From positions 37,472-101,471 of the IMG/VR virus record IMGVR_UViG_3300045988_037736: 64,000 bases of DNA; one strand, 5' to 3'. Positions within the stretch are counted from its first letter, which is position 1, and each line of letters starts with the position of its first letter. Of this stretch, positions 3,001-61,392 are shown in pieces. A program made the translations under genes and the position numbers. The notes below the pieces were generated by a model that worked only from the letters and a program-made list of their open reading frames with translations, made no database searches and was not told the origin of the DNA. The stretch is from a virus.

Positions 3001-5526
3001 CAATAGACCTGGTTTCTTTTGAAACCATATCCATCATGTCAAGCATTTCATTGGCATTTCTCTGTATAGTCTGAAGGGCTTCCTCTCTACTTATGTTCTG
3101 AGTTCTGTTCTGAGCTGATGCCATGAACTGTTCAACAGCCTTTGATTCCTCTGACTCAGGGTCTTGCAGATTCTGAGCATCAAAGTTTGCCCTTGCCTGT
3201 AGGTTAGCCATAACAGCTTCATGATAACCAGTACCTTCAAGGTCATTAAGAGTTATAATGTTACTAAACATTTGACCAACTCTTGCATCTCTTGCAGCCT
3301 TTTCATCATTACTTTCTATAGCCTCTTGATATTGAGTAAGCCATTCAGCAGTACCTCCTGCATTAAATAATGCTCTCTGCATACTTTCATCAGAGAAGTA
3401 GGTATTAAAGTGTTCAGCCATCTTCTCCCTCTGCTGATTGACAGCATTGATTTCAGTATTTGAGAATAAAGGAGTAAAGGCACTTCTCCAAGTAATACCC
3501 TTTGCAGTCATATTACCATTAGCACCTTGTTTCATACCAATGTTAGGTCCACCCATTGCAGTGGATAAAGCACCATAGACACCACTCTTTATAGCATCAA
3601 AGGATATAGCTGTATTACCTGCTGCTTGTAGACCTGCTGCAAAGGATTGCCAGAAGTCATTCTGAGCTGCTGTAGCTCCAGGGTTTGCACCATATTTATT
3701 GTCAATATACTGTTGCATTTTGTCTTCAGCATATGCCTGACCAAATGCACTAGATATATCCTGTGTGTACTCTTCAAAGCCTTCACCTAAAGCCTCCTTA
3801 AGCCTACCCTTAAAGGCTTGACCCTTAGTCATCTGTCTTGCTTGAGCTACCCATCTATCTCCCTGTCTTGCTATATTAACTGCATCTCCTACAGAGTTAT
3901 TTCCTCCTATACCAATCTTCCTAAGAGCATTCTGAACTCTTGGAGCTTGCTGACCTGCCTGCCATGTAGCATTGACCATACCATTTATAACAGAGTTAGT
4001 CCAAAAGTCATAGTACATAGCTGTGTTGGCACTTTCCTCGGCAGCTTGTCTATCTGCTGCCATATCAGCAGCATACTTTCCTTCAAACTGTGCTCTAGCT
4101 TCAGGGTTGGACTTTAAGTAGTCTGCTTGTTCCTGAGACATATTATGCTCTCTAGCATAGGCATCAATATCAGCATCTACCTTAGAAGCATATCTATTCT
4201 GAATATCTGTTTCAAGACCTTTCAGAGTTTCCTGTTTGGTCATAGCAGCATTCATGCCACCTTCAACTGTGCCTACTGCACCTGGAACAAGAAGATTTCC
4301 TATGTTCCTTGCCTTAGTCACTCCTCTTAGGAAGGATACTCCTTTTGCTGAAGCATTAAGAGTCTTTCCTCCCATAGCTACTTTTCCTAGCCAAGCAGCT
4401 CCTTTAGTAGCTGCATTAACAGCAGCAGAGCTACCAAATGAGAGGATAGTAGAGGCAGCAGTAAAACCATACTGACCAAATAACTCAAAGGGTGTATTAG
4501 CTGAAAATAAGGAGTTCTGTTGCTCAACAGTATTAAAGATAGGATTGTCAGATAGTCCAAGACTCTCCAATCTCTCTTGCTCCGATGGTGACCATGAGTT
4601 AGTAGTTGCAACCCTGTCACCATATCTAGTTACAGCATTATCAATTACATTCTCAAGCCATGACTCATCATCTTCAAGACCTATACCTACAGCACCACCT
4701 ATCATACCAGCAGCTCTGATAATCATACCAGCAGCACTGTCAATAAACTGAGCACCAGAGTTCCATGTTTTTTCAAGGAATGACTGATTGTTTGCTACTG
4801 TATTTTGATAGTAGTTACCAAGAGCCTTAGCAGCAAACTGACCTCCACCAACTGCTTCATTAGCAAGATAGGAGGCAAGAACCTGCTTTCTCTCCTCTGT
4901 AGACATTGATAGCTTATCTGTACCATTATACTCCTTATACATTGGAGAAATTTCTCCTGAGAAAGAATCAAGGTCAGTCAGGTACCTTTCTAGAGTCTCT
5001 GAGTCTAGGGCATTAAGCTGGTTATAGTAGGTATCATATAGTTGGGCAGACTTATTCTCAAGATAGGAAAAAGCCTGCTCCCTCATAGTATCTCCTCCTG
5101 TTAACTTAGCATCAATTAGGGCATACTTGTAATCAGGGTCAAACAGGAACTTCCACACAGAAGTGGAAGATTCCTGTAAATCACTCCTAGCATCAAGGTC
5201 AGATGCTAGAGCCTTCTTTGCTACATAGTCATCTCTCTGTCCTTTCGTAAGAGAGCTTCTGCTGTTGAATATCTGTTGGTCTTCTTCACTGTTACTATTG
5301 CCAAATATATCCATGAATACTGTGTTCCTAAAGTAGTTATCTTTTTGAACATCATCCATTCCTTGAATTTCTCTAGCATACTGCTTCTCCCATTCAGCCC
5401 TATCATCTGCACTAAGACCGGTCAGTCCCGAAAAGTAGGACTGATTATACCTTTGCTGTAGAGTCTGTTGTGACTTCTCTGAAGGAAGAGCAAACATTCC
5501 AGTGGGACCACCCGCTAATATAGGCA
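1..5526 (-). CDS. Giant virion/tail-associated protein (5' partial; >1840 codons), read with in-frame TAG codons taken as sense
   Basis: Start ATG at ~5526 (MPILAGGPTGMFALPSEKSQQ...). The frame stays open to the window edge except for repeated in-frame TAG codons, which is why the ORF track shows no long ORF here. Continuous protein-like translation with TAG=Q. Function unknown. Confidence 0.55.
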
Positions 5527-5550: not shown

Positions 5551-6939
5551 TTACATACCACTAGATGCATCATCATCTGCTACTGTAGCAGGGGTTGATG
5601 AGCTACTCACCTTAGGAACAAGCCAGAAGTGGTCATCTACAGTTGTCTGTGTCTTCACAGCAATCTCTATCTCATTTACATCATAGCCAGTTCCTGCCAA
5701 TCTTCTCCTTACATACTGTTGTTGAGTAGGACTCAACTGACTAAATTGTATATATTGGACATCTCCTGGGATAACATAACCTTCTTTATCCTCCTTATCC
5801 CCTCTAGAGTCAGGATTAGAAGCTTGTGCATTATCTGCTCTCCAGTGAATGTTACCTAATGGCTTTCTTTGCGCTTTAGCTTTTGCAACTTCAGCAGCTG
5901 TTGGAGTAGGTGTTGGAGTAGGTGTTGTAGATTTCCATGTTACTCCATCAGACTGTAAAATTTCAGTCCATTGCAGCTTACCATTACTATAGAATTTAGT
6001 CTTGCCATCAGCAGAAATATAATAAGGTTTAGCTCCTGAAGCAATACTATCCTTCTCCTTAGCATACTCAAACTGGTCTCTTTGTAGCTGTACTGAGGCT
6101 GCTTGATTAGCAAGAGACTGTCTTTGTGCAGCATTGATATACTCGCCATTCTCAGTAAACTGATAGGTAGGCTTAGCAAGACCTGCATACATACCAGTAG
6201 TAACACTACTTAGAACTTGCTGTCTTGCAGCATCTCCCCAATCAGCAACATTGGCAAGTTCATCATCCATTATCTGTCTGAACCCTTGTAGCTTTGTTCT
6301 AAGAGCTTCTGATATATTTGGATTATTAAGCTGGTCATTTACTACAGCATAGAACATCTCAGGACTCATGCCATTCTGCTGAGTTATCTGATATTTCTGA
6401 CCACCAAGAACTGTCTTAAATTCAGGGTCACTGAATAATGACTTACCTAATGCTTCTGCTTTTGCAGATGTTCTTGCAAGTATATCCTTACCACTTACAT
6501 AATCCTCACTTACTGTCTTTCCATGTAAGAAATCATCAAGGGAGAGATTCTCAACCTTGAATATAGCTGAGTTATCTCTTGCCCTTGTATCTCTCCTATA
6601 TTTTATAGCTTCCTGTCTGGCAGCATCTGCTCTTGCAATAGGAGTAATCTCCTTTGCATATCTTCTTTTGAGACCAAGGAGCTGCCTTCTGTTAGCCATT
6701 GTCATTCCTCTACTGAAGTCATCAGTAACAGTTTCTAAATCCTTAGCATATCTACTAAACATTGCATAGGCTTCAGGACTATTCTCCTGTGTTGCAATAT
6801 CTCTGAATGCCTCAGTCTGAGTTGCAAGATTTGCATACTGCTCTTCAGCTTCATTATAAGCTTTGGTGTAATCCTCTAGAGGCTTTACCAGCTGCTCATA
6901 TGTAAAAGGATTAAACCTACTATTTACAACTATATTCAT
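5551..6939 (-). CDS. Hypothetical structural protein (462 aa) with TPTPTPTPT linker
   Basis: Intact ORF in the track; Pro/Thr linker; sits between recoded virion genes. Confidence 0.6.
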   Translation of the reverse strand: MNIVVNSRFNPFTYEQLVKPLEDYTKAYNEAEEQYANLATQTEAFRDIATQENSPEAYAMFSRYAKDLETVTDDFSRGMTMANRRQLLGLKRRYAKEITPIARADAARQEAIKYRRDTRARDNSAIFKVENLSLDDFLHGKTVSEDYVSGKDILARTSAKAEALGKSLFSDPEFKTVLGGQKYQITQQNGMSPEMFYAVVNDQLNNPNISEALRTKLQGFRQIMDDELANVADWGDAARQQVLSSVTTGMYAGLAKPTYQFTENGEYINAAQRQSLANQAASVQLQRDQFEYAKEKDSIASGAKPYYISADGKTKFYSNGKLQWTEILQSDGVTWKSTTPTPTPTPTAAEVAKAKAQRKPLGNIHWRADNAQASNPDSRGDKEDKEGYVIPGDVQYIQFSQLSPTQQQYVRRRLAGTGYDVNEIEIAVKTQTTVDDHFWLVPKVSSSSTPATVADDDASSGM

Positions 6940-44518: not shown

Positions 44519-44852
44519 TTTCCTAAAGATTACTCAGGATTAATAAGTTTATTAAGTTCTTCTTTAAAAGTTTTGAGCCACTCTTTGTCTTGGTTGTTGG
44601 GGCTATTAAGAATAATTTTAGTCTGTGTTAGCACCATCCTAGCAATAGGGTGTGGTATCTTTACCTGTTCCATAATTATATTTTTTTTTATTTTCTAACA
44701 CTTATTTCATTTAATTTATCATAAAAATCAAGAACAAACTGTTCATCCTGCAACAGTGAGTTACTTACCTCTTTGTCAATCTGCTCTAGCTAGAGCATTA
44801 CATTGGACATAAACCATTTTAAAGCTTCCTTATTCATTGTGATTAAAGTTAG

Positions 44853-44924
44853 TCGCCCCACTCTGGCTCGAACAGAGACCAAAGGATTTAGAGTCCTCTG
44901 TGCTAACCATTACACCATGAGGCA
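44853..44924 (-). tRNA. Amber suppressor tRNA, anticodon CTA (reads UAG), tRNA-Gln-derived
   Basis: TGCCTCATGGTGTAATGGTTAGCACAGAGGACTCTAAATCCTTTGGTCTCTGTTCGAGCCAGAGTGGGGCGA. Anticodon stem GAGGA/TCCTT, loop C-T-CTA-A-A. The D-arm TGGTGTAATGGTYAGCACA is near-identical to tRNA-Gln(TTG) at 48934..49005. Confidence 0.75.
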
Positions 44925-47265: not shown

Positions 47266-47742
47266 TTATTTTCTTTTGTTTTTACCTGCGTATGTACTTG
47301 TCTGTGAATGACAGTTAGGGCATAAGAATCTTAAATTCTCTAATCTATGGTCATTATTTATACCATTTATGTGGTCTAGATGTAGAGATAGTGGCTGACC
47401 ATTCCACGAGGATATACCACATTTACTGCATTCATATTTTAGCAACTTATTGTCTATAAGCCTTCTTTTAAGTGAAGCTATATTAGCATAGCTACTATTC
47501 TTTACTAGTATGTTCTCAATGGGATATACTTGCGTTGGAGATTTTATGCTTACATCTCCAAAGTGAGATGTTGAACATCCTAGTTCTTGGATTCTTCTTT
47601 TCAAGACATCTTGTGAAGAATCCCCTTTAGTAGTTAGTCCTAATGCTCTCAGGGTATCAGAGTAACTATTAACTCTATTTATTAAATTTATAAACTCCTT
47701 ATCAGAGATACTATATACTTTACTTGTACCTTTTCTTCTCAT
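47266..47742 (-). CDS. HNH homing endonuclease
   Basis: C-terminal CxxC...H-N...H...CxxCH (ECSKCG...HLDHINGINNDHRLENLRFLCPNCH) HNH zinc-finger nuclease motif; within the tRNA array. Confidence 0.8.
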   Translation of the reverse strand: MRRKGTSKVYSISDKEFINLINRVNSYSDTLRALGLTTKGDSSQDVLKRRIQELGCSTSHFGDVSIKSPTQVYPIENILVKNSSYANIASLKRRLIDNKLLKYECSKCGISSWNGQPLSLHLDHINGINNDHRLENLRFLCPNCHSQTSTYAGKNKRK

Positions 47743-47744
47743 AG

Positions 47745-47830
47745 TGGTAGGTAAAAGAATCGAACTTTTACTAGTACCATACCTACCAGTTGCTACCTTT
47801 AACCACCCCCTGTAGCTAGGTTGAGTTATA
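47745..47830 (-). other. Atypical tRNA-like element (acceptor/T-arm minihelix GGTAGGT...AAAAG-TTCGATT-CTTTT-ACCTACC-A; possible D-arm-less tRNA with loop GGTATGG)
   Basis: Perfect T-arm plus a 7-bp acceptor-like helix only ~53 nt apart; an upstream 7-bp stem ACTGGTA/TACTAGT with a 7-nt loop. No canonical cloverleaf found by eye. Confidence 0.3.
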
Positions 47831-48772: not shown

Positions 48773-48857
48773 ATGCACCCTACTTGCACCTTCACAGGCT
48801 AGGTAGGTAATGATTCTCACTTCTTTGCCATTTACATTCTTTTCACGAACAAGTTTG

Positions 48858-48929
48858 TACTCCCTGTAAGACTCGAACTTACAACTTAGGGCTTAGAAGA
48901 CCCTTGTTCTTCCATTGAACTAAGGGAGC
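48858..48929 (-). tRNA. tRNA-Arg (TCT)
   Basis: D-arm GTTC-AATGGAA-GAAC; anticodon loop CTTCTAA. Confidence 0.65.
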
Positions 48930-55482: not shown

Positions 55483-55706
55483 AGACAATAAAACTCACCC
55501 TTAAAGGAATAATGCTCTATGCCACAATGCTGACAACTATGGTATATATAGCAGGCATAGACAGTATCTATGACAATGGACACTTCCTTCTTGCAACAAG
55601 TATTGTGGCATTACCTATATATATATGCTACAAGACCATCACAGGGGAGGAATTCAACATACTATCAGGTAACAAACTATGGGGAATACCTGATGATGAA
55701 TCGTGA
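55479..55706 (+). CDS. Small membrane protein (75 aa)
   Basis: Two hydrophobic segments; 4-nt overlap with the upstream gene. Confidence 0.4.
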   Translation: MKTIKLTLKGIMLYATMLTTMVYIAGIDSIYDNGHFLLATSIVALPIYICYKTITGEEFNILSGNKLWGIPDDES

Positions 55707-55798
55707 TTTTGTGTTTTTTTAAGGTAAGGATGATTAATTTTAGGATGACGTCGGTAACACTTCACATAGTCTGTGAAGATAATGTGGAGTTTTTACTT

Positions 55799-55872
55799 GC
55801 CCTCATAGCTCATCAGGATAGAGCAACAGTTTCCTAAACTGTAGGTGGAAGGTTCGAGTCCTTCTGGGGGTA
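55799..55872 (+). tRNA. tRNA-Arg (CCT)
   Basis: GCCCTCA-TA-GCTC-ATCAGGATA-GAGC-A-ACAGT-TTCCTAA-ACTGT-AGGTG-GAAGG-TTCGAGT-CCTTC-TGGGGGT-A. Confidence 0.7.
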
Positions 55873-56135
55873 CTAAACAATTAAAGTAAGAAGGAAAATG
55901 AAAACAGAAACAATGGAGAAAGCAATACTGATTTTTCAGTGCATAGCAATTACTGTAGCCAGCCTATTCTATTTGATAGGTATGACACTTGATGCCATAT
56001 ATCTAGTAGCATTAGCAATATACGTAAAGAAGTGATGCAAATGGTTCCATAGCTCAAATGGATAGAGCAACAGACTTAAGATACTTTAACTCTAAGGATT
56101 TCATAGTATAGAAATTTATTACTAACTTTGCATAA

Positions 56136-56208
56136 CTCCCCTTAGTTCAGCGGATAGTAACAATGGTCTTCTAAACCATAAACCCCAGTTCGAGTCTGGG
56201 AGGGGAGA
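56136..56208 (+). tRNA. tRNA-Arg (TCT)
   Basis: CTCCCCT-TA-GTT-CAGCGGATAGT-AAC-A-ATGGT-CTTCTAA-ACCAT-AAAC-CCCAG-TTCGAGT-CTGGG-AGGGGAG-A. Confidence 0.7.
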
Positions 56209-56228
56209 CTAAAATAAATTTATATATT

Positions 56229-56645
56229 ATGAATCCAAAGAGAAGAAGTAATTGTATCTGCGTAAATTGTGGTGATGAATTTTATCCAGCATATAATATG
56301 TCTGGAAAGTATTGTTCAAATAAATGCCAGATGGAATACCAATCCAAGCAAAAATACCAAAGATATTTACAACATCCCGAAGAGTATGAAGGACAGAGTA
56401 ATATGTTTTGGGTAAAGAAACATATCCTAAAAGAACAAGAACATAAATGTTCTATTTGTGGATGTGTTGATACTTGGAATAATAAACCATTAGTATTTAT
56501 ACTTGACCACATTGATGGTCATGCTAACAACAATATTAGAACTAATCTTAGACTTGTTTGCCCTAATTGTGACTCACAGTTAGACACATACAAAAGCAAG
56601 AATAAGAATAGTGATAGAATTTATCATCATAATCATCACAGATAA
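56229..56645 (+). CDS. HNH homing endonuclease
   Basis: CxxC...CxxC N-terminus and HNH motif ...CSICGC...LDHIDGHANNNIRTNLRLVCPNCD; the TAA stop abuts or overlaps the start of the tRNA 3' half. Confidence 0.8.
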   Translation: MNPKRRSNCICVNCGDEFYPAYNMSGKYCSNKCQMEYQSKQKYQRYLQHPEEYEGQSNMFWVKKHILKEQEHKCSICGCVDTWNNKPLVFILDHIDGHANNNIRTNLRLVCPNCDSQLDTYKSKNKNSDRIYHHNHHR

Positions 56646-56882
56646 ATCTGTAGGTTGTGAGTTCGAGTCTCACTGGAATCACTATTATTATTAGATGGTC
56701 ATGACCTTCGACCGAAAAAAGGCAGTACCCTGCATACTCTAATGTAGGCTTCTGAATAGGATAAGTTGTGCCGAGTTGAAACCATAAAGAAGAGAAACTA
56801 AAGGTTGGACAAATGAATGAGGCTAAAAACAAAACTTGCTTCGGAGTTTTGTTATAAATACATTTTTGAAGAAGCAACATCT

Positions 56883-57275
56883 GGGGCATATCTGGTATTT
56901 GATTGCAAATTATTAGGTAAGAGAACATGCAAGAGGGCATACTCTATAAATAGCAAGTAAACTTAGATGCAGAAGTTGATGAAACTCCTGTGAGAATGGC
57001 TGCATAAGCTTGACTCTGAGCAGCACTTGCTTGGAAACAGAAAGGTGCAAAAGTCTGAAAGGAAACTAAGACTGGCAGTCCGAGGTCCTAGTGCTTAATT
57101 AGCTCTGATATGCACGGAGAAGGTAAGCCAACTTTTTCTCTGTTTATGGACAATAAAACAGAGTGGTGGAAAGACAACTAGTCAACCCTGTGAAGAAAAC
57201 ACTCCAAATTGAAAAGCATGTACAATTCTCTTATGTGAAGTTTGTAAGACGAGGGTTCGACTCCCTCATGCTCCA
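56883..57275 (+). ncRNA. ssrA: tmRNA (ssrA-like), ~393 nt, standard (non-permuted) form
   Basis: 5' GGGGCATATCTGGTATTTGATTGC resembles the E. coli 5' end GGGGCTGATTCTGGATTCGAC. The 3' end GACGAGGGTTCGACTCCCTCATGCTCCA resembles GACGCGGGTTCAACTCCCGCCAGCTCCA. The terminal strands pair 7/7, including G3:U70, with discriminator A. Internal frame GCA GAA GTT GAT GAA ACT CCT GTG AGA ATG GCT GCA TAA (AEVDETPVRMAA*) at 56969..57007, ~86 nt from the 5' end, preceded by AAATAG. Confidence 0.6.
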
Positions 57276-57299
57276 CTAATTAAAACCCAAGATTAACAA

Positions 57300-60418: not shown

Positions 60419-60576
60419 AAATATACCTCCTTTTTCCTAAATGATACTTACAATTATAACTGACTATTTTCGCTTTTTTCATAGATTATACAAAGTTTAA
60501 CTAAGTATCAAACTTCCTAAGGTATAGAGGGAGAAATACCCTCTATACCTACAAATTAGACACTTACAATACTATA

Positions 60577-60649
60577 ATATATTTAGCTCATTTGGTAGAG
60601 CAAAAGATTTTTAATCTTTGAGTAGAAGGTTCGATTCCTTTAATATACT
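60577..60649 (+). tRNA. tRNA-Lys (TTT)
   Basis: AT-rich acceptor; D-arm GCTC-ATTTGGTA-GAGC; anticodon stem AAAGA/TCTTT, loop TTTTTAA; T-loop TTCGATT. Confidence 0.6.
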
Positions 60650-60666
60650 TTTTAGTGTCTATAATT

Positions 60667-60747
60667 GGAGGAGCAGCTCAAATAGTGGAAGAGCATCATC
60701 TGAATTAATAAGGATGAAGAGTGCAGGTTCAAGTCCTGTCTCCCCCA
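60667..60747 (+). other. Atypical tRNA with canonical acceptor, D- and T-arms but a 12-nt anticodon loop (TGAATTAATAAG)
   Basis: GGAGGAG-CA-GCTC-AAATAGTGGAA-GAGC-A-TCATC-TGAATTAATAAG-GATGA-AGAGT-GCAGG-TTCAAGT-CCTGT-CTCCCCC-A. Confidence 0.4.
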
Positions 60748-60794
60748 CAGTTTTCATTTTTCATGTCTCAAGATACTTACAATACTAACTTTTT

Positions 60795-60872
60795 ACAGGT
60801 TCGAGTCCTGTATTACCCTACAGTGGGTGATTGGTGCAATGGTTGACACGACAGATTGCAGGTCTGTTTCAT
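60795..60872 (+). other. Permuted tRNA-like unit: [T-arm + 3' acceptor strand] followed by [5' acceptor + D-arm + anticodon arm (GCA)]
   Basis: ACAGG-TTCGAGT-CCTGT-ATTACCC-T acag GGGTGAT-TG-GTG-CAATGGTTGA-CAC-G-ACAGA-TTGCAGG-TCTGT-TTCAT. Acceptor strands complementary 7/7 (one G-U). Confidence 0.4.
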
Positions 60873-61052
60873 AGTATAAGTATCTATTTTCTTTAACATA
60901 TGGAGAGGTAGTTAAAATAAAATTGAAGTAGTAACTATTGTTACTTACAATACTACAATTCAAAAGGTTATAACATTTGTTCCATACACAAAAACATGGA
61001 GGTTCGAGTCCTCCCCTCTCCACAAACAGCTACTTACAAAGCTACTACTATC

Positions 61053-61133
61053 GTAAGTTCGACTCTTACATTATCCACCTATTGGGGGATGATTAGCTTA
61101 GTGGTAAAGCAAACAACTTGTAATTGTTCAGTA
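61053..61133 (+). other. Second permuted tRNA-like unit: [T-arm + 3' acceptor] followed by [5' acceptor + D-arm + anticodon arm (TGT)]
   Basis: GTAAG-TTCGACT-CTTAC-ATTATCC-A cctattgg GGATGAT-TA-GCTT-AGTGGTAA-AGC-A-AACAA-CTTGTAA-TTGTT-CAG. Acceptor strands 7/7 (one G-U). Same breakpoint (between variable loop and T-stem) as the first unit. Confidence 0.4.
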
Positions 61134-61149
61134 TAAAGTAGCTACATTT

Positions 61150-61286
61150 AGGGTGTTCGTCTAGTGGTTAGGACGGAAGTTTATTCTATCTAAGTAACAG
61201 TTTGTTACTTATAATAAGTCAATAGCTTTATAGTGTTTAGAATTTATCGGGTTCTTCAGACAGAGGTTCAATTCCTCTACACCCTA
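61150..61286 (+). other. Split tRNA-like gene: 5' half (acceptor AGGGTGT + D-arm + GAAG) ... ~70-nt insert ... 3' half (CTTC + T-arm + ACACCCT-A)
   Basis: Acceptor strands complementary 7/7; the insert contains the hairpin AAGTAAC-agttt-GTTACTT followed by ATAATAAG (a motif variant). Confidence 0.35.
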
Positions 61287-61318
61287 CTACAGTCACTTAC
61301 AATATCTTAAATAAATTA

Positions 61319-61392
61319 GACAAATTAGCTCACTTGGATAGAGCGTAAGCTTCGGGTACTTAAGGTAGGTGGTTCAATTCCATCATTTGTGA
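61319..61392 (+). tRNA. tRNA, anticodon ambiguous (candidate CGG or TCG; loop region GTAAGCTTCGGGTACTTA)
   Basis: D-arm GCTC-ACTTGGATA-GAGC; T-arm GGTGG-TTCAATT-CCATC; acceptor 6/7; preceded by the motif at 61295. Confidence 0.45.

Follow-up and report, generated by a model that had tools for sequence, protein, structure and literature searches.

An HNH endonuclease gene and a tRNA-Arg(UCU) gene inserted at the anticodon of a crAss-like phage tRNA-Arg(UCU): a putative homing cassette with a replacement tRNA

The analysed window is a stretch of viral DNA of 64,000 nt, and the locus described here is located in it between a tRNA-Arg(CCT) gene and a tmRNA gene. It consists of two outer tRNA segments, separated by an insert with a leader, a complete inner tRNA-Arg(UCU) and a gene for an HNH endonuclease (Table 1). 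All 28 trial joins of the outer segments, made with varying cut points, were recognized as tRNA by ARAGORN. In the rebuilt molecule the acceptor stem (7/7, including one G-U pair), the anticodon stem (5/5), the T stem (5/5) and the D stem (4/4) are fully paired, as an earlier reading made from the sequence alone (the sequence-only reading) had described for the acceptor and anticodon stems. The segments are halves of one tRNA gene, broken in the anticodon loop. Chance can be dismissed as the source of this arrangement, since the rebuilt tRNA and the intact tRNA-Arg(TCT) of the related loci L047 and L008 share 92% identity, and the split recurs in independent assemblies. The sequence-only reading had recognized the split correctly, but its insertion length of 566 nt requires correction: with the stop codon included, the insert measures 568 nt (56078-56645) and has an additional A behind it at 56646.

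Table 1. Features of the split tRNA-Arg(UCU) locus and its conserved neighbours (positions in the window).
Feature	Position	Strand	Basis or remark
tRNA-Arg(CCT), conserved gene 5' of the tRNA-Arg(UCU) site	55799..55873	+	ARAGORN
Outer tRNA-Arg(UCU), 5' half	56043..56077	+	Sequence reading; ARAGORN on joined halves
5' half: acceptor strand GGTTCCA	56043-56049		
5' half: D-arm GCTC/GAGC	56052-56068		
5' half: anticodon-stem 5' strand ACAGA	56070-56074		
5' half: loop bases C32 U33 U34 (CTT)	56075-56077		
Cassette leader, 58 nt, 5' of inner tRNA	56078..56135	+	Conserved in cassettes of relatives
Inner tRNA-Arg(UCU), complete	56136-56209	+	ARAGORN (tct); Rfam 56 bits
HNH endonuclease ORF, 138 aa	56229-56645	+	ORF listing; PHROG HNH families, E=3.6e-21
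One extra A between ORF stop and 3' half	56646	+	Absent in L004, L262, L263
Outer tRNA-Arg(UCU), 3' half	56647-56681	+	Sequence reading
3' half: anticodon-stem 3' strand TCTGT	56647-56651		
3' half: variable loop AGGTT; T-arm GTGAG-TTCGAGT-CTCAC			
3' half: acceptor strand TGGAATC	56674-56680		
3' half: discriminator A	56681		
tmRNA, conserved gene 3' of the tRNA-Arg(UCU) site	56883..57278	+	Rfam RF00023, 70.2 bits

The leader is retained by the cassettes of L004/L126, L262, L263-269 and L272, and is 88% identical to that of L004. It contains TAACTTTG (56123-56130), a match to the Bacteroidetes -7 promoter consensus TAnnTTTG and the predicted promoter from which both the inner tRNA and the HNH gene would be transcribed. 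Another motif, TTCATAGTATA, common to the leader and one other locus, showed no enrichment when one mismatch was allowed. The inner tRNA is identical to that of L004 at 73 of 74 positions and shares 78-84% identity with the tRNAs preceding HNH homologs in L127 and L141, but only 60% with the outer tRNA, from which it differs in the anticodon stem, D stem and acceptor.

ARAGORN, Rfam and PHROG searches supported the earlier description of a tRNA-Arg(TCT) and an HNH reading frame between the halves, with the stop of the latter abutting the 3' part. The stop codon TAA (56643-56645) occupies the place of U36, A37 and A38 of the target loop, one base 5' of the anticodon-stem 3' strand. The encoded protein starts with a zinc-ribbon-like region, followed by the HNH motif DHIDGHANNN...NLRLVCPNC. 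It matched PHROG HNH families with E-values of 3.6e-21, 9.7e-18 and 5.8e-15 and, weakly, the HNH domain of Cas9, while a Pfam search with the 138 aa returned no family above its own cut-off. Its homologs number 1967 at E<=1e-20, and the catalytic region (DH..N..N/CxxC) is invariant in the homolog alignment. The dN/dS of the gene is 0.08-0.11, and the HNH gene of the window is under purifying selection; between the window and L004, dS is about 0.77 and synonymous sites differ by about 48%. A paralog that passes Pfam PF01844 is present in the main tRNA array of the window (47266-47742). The window has a further tRNA-Arg(TCT) gene at 48857-48929.

For the identification of the split gene, intact tRNAs sharing its body (GGATAGAGCAACAGA..TCTGTAGGT) were collected from IMG/VR. 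All 120 were tRNA-Arg, 116 of them with anticodon TCT, and their loop is usually CTTCTAA; the same loop was found in all intact tRNAs with the L127-type outer body. Both A20 and the discriminator A73 can be read in the outer halves. In L008, L013, L026 and L047 an intact tRNA-Arg(TCT) follows tRNA-Arg(CCT), in L047 with the tmRNA next to it, and orthologous tmRNAs lie downstream of the site in L004, L047 and L262. Sequence and gene order both identify the interrupted gene as the resident tRNA-Arg(UCU) of the phage. The rebuilt tRNA had been said to resemble closely the tRNA-Arg(CCT) at 55799; this resemblance does not hold, as the two share only 70% identity. The corresponding target in cr53-type phages was first read as tRNA-Lys(UUU) from its T-rich junctions, but the intact alleles proved to be tRNA-Arg(UCU).

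Group I introns occur in the anticodon loops of several tRNA genes, i.e. cyanobacterial tRNA-Leu(UAA) and tRNA-fMet, Agrobacterium tRNA-Arg(CCU) and Azoarcus tRNA-Ile, some of them with homing endonucleases. In common with these, the present locus is interrupted behind a U of the anticodon loop, holds a nuclease reading frame and shows presence/absence polymorphism. It could be read as a self-splicing intron of group I (or with another type of ribozyme) that encodes a homing endonuclease, 566-569 nt being removed from the pre-tRNA to leave a functional outer tRNA. The insertion point after U34, the terminal base of the 5' exon (56077), coincides with the classic intron site of cyanobacterial tRNA-Leu(UAA). 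In L150 and L146 all seven loop bases are retained across the junctions, so that exact excision is formally possible there, and crAss-like phages carry numerous group I introns in their protein-coding genes (PMC7886860).

However, ribozyme classes including group I, group II and HDV-like were sought at permissive thresholds, and the covariance-model search that had been proposed for group I introns, carried out with Rfam 15, gave no ribozyme or intron family in 55700-56900 at E<=10, in the whole window at the gathering score or in seven related loci at E<=0.1. The portion of the insert outside the tRNA and the reading frame comprises 77 nt (58 nt at 56078-56135 and 19 nt at 56210-56228), whereas a core needs about 200 nt or more, and the reading frame itself is AT-rich and constrained as protein (dN/dS about 0.1). 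A terminal G is found at no usable position: splicing at the last G of the insert (56641) would give an 8-nt loop, CTTATAAA, and the cr53-type and L150 copies lack a G close to the 3' junction. The possible joins of the halves give the anticodons UUA, UAA or AUA, or loops of 6, 8 or 9 nt; since C35 is absent, no choice of junction restores UCU. The 3' junction differs by one A between the window and L004, the anticodon-stem 5' strand is missing in L276-279, L127-type copies have 5-6 of 7 acceptor pairs, and the 5' junction or the leader is deleted in L136 and L137. The intron reading is thus very improbable, and on present sequence evidence the split gene is not a self-splicing intron. Unlike the known tRNA introns, the insert has neither a ribozyme core, for which it offers no space, nor a terminal G, and splicing cannot restore the anticodon; any rescue would come from a second gene copy.

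Archaeal split and intron-containing tRNA genes (Nanoarchaeum; bulge-helix-bulge introns) are likewise discontinuous at the anticodon loop. By contrast, the loop of the window's gene is incomplete, and inspection of 56070-56100 and 56620-56651 revealed neither a bulge-helix-bulge (4-bp helix with 3-nt bulges) nor leader/trailer complementarity inside the insert ends. To our knowledge, no splicing endonuclease of this kind is known in Bacteroidetes or crAss-like phages.

The split gene was not called by ARAGORN even with introns of up to 1500 nt allowed, and split genes in relatives were located with a custom half-matching scan; hits in distant loci with 6/7 acceptor pairs and 3-bp D stems were judged spurious. 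The HNH gene together with an inner tRNA was found at the tRNA-Arg(UCU) anticodon in the window, L004, L262, L263-269, L271, L272/273 and L276-279. The HNH gene alone occupies this position in cr53_1-like phages (L128-135, L143-145 and L002) and in L270, and L150 is a further case of the HNH subfamily at the same anticodon. Many crAss-like lineages are represented among these loci.

Comparison with relatives lacking the insertion, which the sequence-only reading had suggested, demonstrated that empty and filled alleles coexist. For the cr53-type site, 36 contigs carry an intact tRNA (loop CTTCTAA in 31 of them) in flanks identical to those of 12 fetched filled loci. Each of the two exon alleles of this site was seen both with and without the 488-nt insert, whose sequence hardly differs between them. 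In the L047 lineage, L047 itself is empty and L262 represents the filled state (upstream 150 nt 90% identical, same tmRNA tag). A search of IMG/VR for an empty allele that has the acceptor of the window (GGTTCCA) gave none; the sister lineages suggest that its exact lineage is polymorphic in the same way.

L262 and L263 have the same cassette at 569 of 569 nt, whereas they differ in the outer halves and in the 150-nt flanks, which align at no more than 39% and 34%. By sequence, this 569-nt cassette has recently been transferred between phages that share only the tRNA halves of about 35 nt. Bases specific to the recipient begin 0-4 nt from the junctions; co-conversion was very limited for a break mended by homologous recombination, which counts against the homing explanation preferred below. 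Target-site duplication (TTC or TTTT at both junctions, as in L150 and the cr53 type) was considered as a general rule and rejected, being inconsistent across lineages. Decayed copies were also found: L136 and L137 have internal HNH deletions of 241 and 292 nt, with loss of the N-terminal half, L127 retains 5 of 7 acceptor pairs, the T-arm and acceptor are broken in L149, and the anticodon stem is truncated in L276-279.

Free-standing copies of the tRNA-Arg(TCT)-HNH pair were found as well, within tRNA arrays of large phages (L141, L148 and L280). The tRNAs of the pair are 78-84% identical among themselves and about 60% identical to the target tRNAs, and the pair can be regarded, from these comparisons, as a module. 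Among 80 metagenome loci with HNH relatives, 72 carry tRNAs, and in 58 a tRNA is situated within 300 nt upstream or 200 nt downstream, which points to phage tRNA clusters as the residence of the wider HNH family.

Recombination between paralogous tRNA-Arg genes, one of the readings proposed earlier, or an assembly chimera could in principle bring about such a split by local rearrangement, as three tRNA-Arg genes lie within 900 nt and have T-loop and D-loop sequence in common. This is hardly credible, given the presence of the arrangement in many independent assemblies (IMG/VR, ENA, Logan and GenBank cr53_1), and the halves are collinear and syntenic with the intact gene of relatives. The inner tRNA belongs to a different lineage from the outer one and travels with the HNH gene elsewhere, including the free-standing copies. 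The reading of a mobile HNH cassette, also among the early proposals, is strongly supported by the empty and filled alleles, the identical cassette in unrelated flanks and the decayed copies.

Even if the cassette is mobile, the outer halves might still work at the RNA level. Once RNase P and RNase Z have freed the inner tRNA, they could pair (7+5 bp) and serve the HNH mRNA as 3' cap or tRNA-like scaffold, or a protein ligase could join them into a tRNA. The halves of the window and L004 are identical at 70 of 71 positions (3' part 36/36) despite a dS of about 0.77 in the HNH gene, and even at the divergence rate of the whole reading frame the probability of one difference or fewer is about 4e-4. 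The stems are perfect in most carriers. The same genome has tRNA-like RNAs of permuted order beside a Ro60-like gene, a sign that discontinuous tRNA-like RNAs are in use here. The two units concerned (60795-60867 and 61053-61128) were at first considered as circularly permuted tRNA genes; with a weak Rfam YrlA match and the Ro60-like fold predicted for the adjacent reading frame, they are better read as probable YrlA-type Y RNAs.

On the other hand, conservation of the halves is expected anyway from continued homing into functional alleles, for which the identical cassette in different outer alleles speaks; it is here attributed to such repeated homing and to the use of the halves as homology arms. 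The halves have decayed in L127, L149 and L276-279, where homing presumably ceased, and there is no way to reconstruct the anticodon loop. The likely internal promoter TAACTTTG would place the two halves on separate transcripts, and the junctions, on inspection, have neither the complementary leader and trailer nor the bulge-helix-bulge. A role of the halves at the RNA level is consequently unlikely. For living halves in the narrower sense, paired after excision of the inner tRNA and either ligase-joined or used as a scaffold of tRNA shape for capping and processing of the nuclease mRNA, the chance is slighter again; what speaks for this reading is the tRNA-like conservation and the Ro60/Y-RNA-like permuted tRNA mimics in the genome. 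It would mean that a discontinuous tRNA of a bacterial virus is handled in an archaeal-style, protein-dependent manner. Most likely, the outer halves are non-functional as tRNA.

The locus is thus very probably a selfish homing cassette, composed of a leader, its own tRNA-Arg(UCU) and an HNH gene, inserted at the anticodon of the resident tRNA-Arg(UCU) of a crAss-like phage of the gut. During co-infection the predicted HNH enzyme would cut or nick intact tRNA-Arg(UCU) genes of the resident type at or beside anticodon positions 34-36, if the insertion point at position 35 is accepted as a proxy for the cut site. The break would then be repaired with the cassette-bearing genome as template, and the two tRNA halves of about 35 nt would provide the sole homology arms, left and right; the cassette could therefore land at the same position in phages that share nothing else. 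Insertion would destroy the target site and make the carrier immune. The resident tRNA would be lost with it, since C35 gives way to cassette sequence, which leaves no means of restoring the loop. The inner tRNA, presumed to resist the nuclease, would compensate for this loss as a substitute for the disrupted gene, so that the cassette would be akin to a natural cleave-and-rescue element. The cleavage site, the resistance of the inner tRNA, its rescue role and the promoter are all predicted parts of this scheme.

The cassette is judged to be a nuclease carrying a replacement tRNA, i.e. a variant of a known phenomenon. The HNH enzymes F-TflI, F-TflII and F-TflIV of phage T5 are free-standing homing endonucleases in phage tRNA clusters. 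In T4, the GIY-YIG enzyme SegB is encoded between tRNA-Arg and tRNA-Ile and has its target in the tRNA region (PMC2988022). As in these systems, a phage nuclease gene is situated among tRNA genes, is predicted to target the tRNA-gene DNA of relatives and would promote its own inheritance along with neighbouring tRNA genes, a habit also seen in the wider HNH family. Unlike SegB and the F-Tfl enzymes, the nuclease gene of the window lies inside a tRNA gene, at the anticodon and bounded by the halves of its target, and its cassette brings along another complete tRNA with this specificity. The enzyme is of the HNH type, in contrast to the GIY-YIG type of SegB. Intron-free splitting of a conserved gene in two by a homing endonuclease gene is shared with mobE inside the ribonucleotide reductase gene of Aeromonas phage Aeh1 ('genes in pieces', to judge from its citation in PMC2988022) and with 'fractured genes' with split inteins (PMC2677866). 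In those cases the protein pieces reassemble and the gene works, whereas here the product is an RNA with a destroyed anticodon, for which the cargo tRNA would compensate.

In synthetic cleave-and-rescue (ClvR) drives and natural toxin-antidote elements, a nuclease kills a useful resident gene and a linked resistant copy restores the function, which gives the element an advantage. The logic proposed here, by analogy, would be the same, with destruction of the resident copy and a linked cleavage-resistant one. In contrast to synthetic ClvR, the element of the window is natural, resides in a phage, has a tRNA gene as target and is predicted to spread by homing.

No split tRNA-Arg gene is annotated in the GenBank record of cr53_1. 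Since ARAGORN does not see the feature even with its intron option and the cr53_1 record lacks it, tRNA inventories and 'HNH endonuclease' annotations of crAss-like phages miss it. The HNH nuclease is a candidate enzyme with a defined tRNA-gene target, predicted to span 20-30 bp. The cassette can indicate that a homing endonuclease may inhabit an RNA gene without an intron by supplying a substitute for the copy it destroys. With two conserved tRNA halves of 35 nt as portable homology arms, such an element could pass between otherwise unrelated phages. It would represent a natural counterpart of the engineered cleave-and-rescue drives, and may offer a cheap route for the spread of tRNA genes among gut phages.

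The window belongs to a crAss-like phage (Crassvirales). Its GenBank phage DNA matches were limited to the uncultured phages cr53_1, cr116_1 and cr106_1, and the cr53_1 record annotates no split tRNA, only an 'HNH endonuclease'. The window HNH protein is 100% identical to a protein of IMG/VR contig 3300045988_064014.

Features of the split tRNA locus and of other tRNA-related regions in the window
Feature	Position	Strand	Characteristics
tRNA, anticodon CTA (ARAGORN 'Pyl')	44852-44924	-	Amber suppressor, within 21-tRNA array
Second HNH gene	47266-47742	-	158 aa, Pfam HNH; free-standing, flanked by tRNA-Asn and tRNA-Trp within the main tRNA array
Minihelix-like tRNA fragment	47750-47810	-	Precedes second HNH gene; acceptor GGTAGGT, T-arm, ACCTACC; D and anticodon arms absent
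Outer tRNA, 5' half	56043-56077		Acceptor GGTTCCA, D-arm GCTC/GAGC, anticodon-stem strand ACAGA, then CTT (sequence reading)
TAACTTTG	56123-56130		In 58-nt leader, six bases 5' of inner tRNA
Inner tRNA-Arg(tct), complete	56136-56209		ARAGORN, Rfam
HNH ORF	56229-56645		138 aa; phage HNH endonuclease families, E=3.6e-21
Outer tRNA, 3' half	56647-56681		TCTGT, variable loop AGGTT, T-arm GTGAG-TTCGAGT-CTCAC, acceptor TGGAATC, discriminator A (sequence reading)
tmRNA gene	56883-57278	+	Rfam, 70.2 bits
CTTACAATACTA copies and variants	60447-61301	+	Exact copies at 60563, 60776, 60944; close variants nearby
tRNA-Lys(ttt)	60576-60650		Loop TTTTTAA
tRNA-like gene	60667-60747	+	81-nt match, 12-nt anticodon loop
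Permuted tRNA-like unit	60795-60867	+	Leader from ~60771, trailer to ~60885
tRNA-like gene	60902-61025	+	GGAGAGG/CCTCTCC acceptor and T-arm, middle ill-defined
Permuted tRNA-like unit	61053-61128	+	Leader from ~61028, trailer to ~61143
tRNA-like gene	61150-61286	+	137-nt Rfam tRNA match, ~70-nt insertion at anticodon loop
tRNA-Pro(cgg)	61319-61392

The sequence-only reading had described two tRNA halves with matching stems, separated by a tRNA-Arg(TCT) and an HNH endonuclease ORF, and both parts of this description were confirmed. Pairing is complete in each stem of the outer tRNA, and a tRNA was called by ARAGORN for all 28 of the 28 joins of the two outer pieces that were tried. The TAA stop of the ORF (56643-45) lies one base away from the 3' anticodon-stem strand. 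The downstream tmRNA was detected by Rfam and missed by ARAGORN, which did call its orthologs in the sister phage L004 and in the related loci L047 and L262.

A search of IMG/VR for intact tRNAs sharing the D-arm and anticodon-stem body of the outer tRNA yielded 120 loci, all of them Arg and 116 with the anticodon TCT, the usual anticodon loop being CTTCTAA. The rebuilt outer tRNA is 92% identical to the intact tRNA-Arg(TCT) of the related phages L047 and L008. Towards the inner tRNA its identity is 60%, and towards the adjoining tRNA-Arg(CCT), previously proposed as its close relative, it is only 70%, so that this resemblance does not hold. The gene order Arg(CCT), intact Arg(TCT), tmRNA of L047 is that of the window, and Arg(CCT) is likewise followed by intact Arg(TCT) in L008, L013 and L026. 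By the body search, the identities and the gene order, the split gene is the resident tRNA-Arg(UCU). Of its ancestral loop C32-U33-U34-C35-U36-A37-A38, the CTT is retained in the 5' half and C35 is lost, while the TAA of the ORF occupies the place of U36-A37-A38.

The insert is not an intron. For the group I intron that had been suggested, a search with Rfam 15 over 55700-56900 gave no match to a group I or other ribozyme even at E<=10; the window as a whole, searched at gathering score, and seven related loci, searched at E<=0.1, were likewise negative. Outside the tRNA and the ORF only 77 nt of insert sequence are left, the last G within the insert is at 56641, and the anticodon UCU does not result from any choice of junctions. 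The HNH ORF, with a dN/dS of 0.08-0.11, evolves as a protein. The 3' junction of L004 has one A fewer than that of the window, a deletion of the 5' junction reaches into the anticodon stem in L276-279, the acceptor stem is decayed in the L127 type (5-6 of 7 pairs left), and the 3' half of L149 has lost T-arm and acceptor. In position the cassette resembles the group I introns of bacterial tRNAs, but it fails the features that define them.

The cassette is a mobile homing cassette, in agreement with another proposal of the sequence-only reading. Relatives of the HNH protein were found at 13 loci of IMG/VR and at 80 from metagenomes; a large protein collection contained 1967 at E<=1e-20. In crAss-like phages the HNH gene repeatedly interrupts a tRNA gene at the anticodon, and the TAA or TAG that ends it borders immediately on the 3' anticodon-stem strand. 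At least seven different outer-tRNA/flank contexts were found, and wherever the target was identifiable it was tRNA-Arg(UCU). The inner tRNA is present in the window, L004, L262, L263-269, L272/273, L271, L276-279 and the L127 type; the HNH gene stands without it in the cr53_1 type, L270 and L150. An HNH homolog (49% identical) is situated in a tRNA-Arg(UCU) anticodon loop in L150 (1191-2001) and L149, and the insert ends with a T-arm and acceptor fragment from a different tRNA. This fragment looks like baggage of an earlier target, which suggests serial hopping of the element between tRNA genes.

At the cr53_1-type site, 36 contigs are empty (intact tRNA, identical flanks; loop CTTCTAA in 31) and 12 fetched loci carry a 488-nt insert. 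Two exon alleles with compensatory differences occur there, each of them with and without the insert, whose sequence is almost the same in the two. Internal deletions were observed in the HNH genes of L136 and L137. Altered loops are present in five of the intact alleles (L218-L253): TTTTTAA in three, giving an Arg body with the anticodon UUU, and CCTCTAA in the other two. These could be nuclease-resistant variants or scars of insert loss via recombination between the junction T-runs. L262 is the L047 lineage in filled form, with a 90% identical upstream flank and the same tmRNA tag. Its cassette is identical to that of L263-269 (569/569 nt), while the 150-nt flanks of L262 and L263 are unrelated (39% and 34%) and their outer halves show several differences, including the base pair adjoining the loop. 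The window cassette is 88-89% identical to this 569-nt cassette.

The outer halves of the window and L004 are identical at 70 of 71 positions, the level of working tRNAs (inner tRNA 73/74, Arg(CCT) 74/75), despite 86.6% identity of the HNH ORF, with ~48% of its synonymous sites changed, and 66-88% identity of the spacers. This is the single finding that runs against the homing reading. It could indicate a retained RNA-level role of the halves, to which we give minor weight: the identical cassette occurs in different outer alleles, so that homing resets the halves, and decayed halves elsewhere show that no universal constraint applies. The conservation is attributed to repeated homing into functional alleles together with element-level selection on the homology arms.

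Several other tRNA-like genes were noted. In the two permuted units next to a Ro60-like gene, the T-arm comes first and is followed by an acceptor hairpin (acceptor 3' strand, 6-10 nt linker, acceptor 5' strand), the D-arm and a complete anticodon arm bearing the anticodon GCA or TGT. A helix of leader and trailer, containing a 3-nt bulge, closes each unit, and both were called as canonical tRNAs once re-ordered. Acceptor and T stems are changed compensatorily in their L004 orthologs (6660-6731 and 6401-6471, minus strand), and when the window was shuffled 20 times the detector found none. A weak Rfam YrlA match (29.2 bits, E=5e-4) was obtained for one of the two units; compared with YrlA-type Y RNAs (PMC4201824), they are probably such RNAs with an unusual complete anticodon arm, and they are no part of the split-tRNA finding. 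The insertions in the further tRNA-like genes share a hairpin and ACTTACAA motif with the permuted-unit leaders. CTTACAATACTA always immediately precedes a tRNA or tRNA-like piece and could be a promoter, processing signal or Ro-binding signal; allowing two mismatches, it has 20 matches in the window (shuffles: mean 12.5, maximum 19). ARAGORN tRNAs with 8-nt anticodon loops ('ttct', 'ttgg') in L004 (6952-7027 and 6157-6231, minus strand) correspond to tRNA-Lys(ttt) and tRNA-Pro(cgg) of the window; anticodon loops of orthologous tRNAs are therefore unstable between these sister phages. The CTA tRNA suggests TAG recoding, which has been reported for crAss-like phages (PMC7886860). In the crAss-like contig L127, the stretch from tRNA-Ile(tat) to tRNA-Arg(cct) holds a full-length match to the Rfam GOLLD RNA model (4704-5120, plus strand; 84.6 bits, E=1e-20, gathering score 150 not reached).

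The nearest known parallels are homing endonucleases that stand free in phage tRNA clusters, among them the HNH enzymes of T5, and intron-less gene-splitting insertions. T4 SegB is located between tRNA-Arg and tRNA-Ile (PMC2988022). Aeh1 mobE is, like the cassette, an intron-less insertion that splits a gene. The searchable literature yielded no account of tRNA genes split by a nuclease gene, nor of nucleases that bring a replacement tRNA with them; an 'interrupted tRNA' of a Vibrio phage (ARAGORN) was flagged by its own authors as a possible artefact (PMC5746245).

More distant HNH relatives are typical tRNA-cluster residents: tRNAs are present in 72 of the 80 loci, in 58 no more than 300 nt before or 200 nt after the gene, most commonly with the gene between tRNA-Ile(TAT) and tRNA-Met(CAT). 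The second HNH gene of the window is 43% identical to the cassette HNH over the catalytic region. In large-phage arrays, some tRNAs carry ~50-105 nt inserted in the anticodon loop or close to it (L146 ~2045-2250, L148 2904-3078, L141 9-170 and 1925-2045). That of L146, just upstream of an HNH homolog, contains a nested tRNA-like fold; the stretch read there has no ORF, and its tRNA-Arg(UCU) keeps all loop bases across the junctions (CTTC|...|TAA). These insertions may be remnants that have lost the HNH gene, or genuine small introns of a type not assigned.

The tRNA-Arg(TCT) and HNH pair is also free-standing in large-phage tRNA arrays (L141, L148, L280). The tRNAs that accompany HNH genes in the window, L127 and L141 belong to a separate lineage, with 78-84% mutual identity and about 60% towards target tRNAs. 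The 58-nt leader is conserved along with the cassette, and since TAACTTTG matches the Bacteroidetes -7 consensus just before the inner tRNA, the cassette may have its own promoter. We infer that a free-standing nuclease adjoining a resistant tRNA-Arg(UCU) would at first have cut the anticodon of sensitive tRNA-Arg(UCU) genes, and that resistant tRNA and nuclease gene may have been jointly captured into the cut site. The unit would since have homed as a block, with the two tRNA halves as its sole homology arms.
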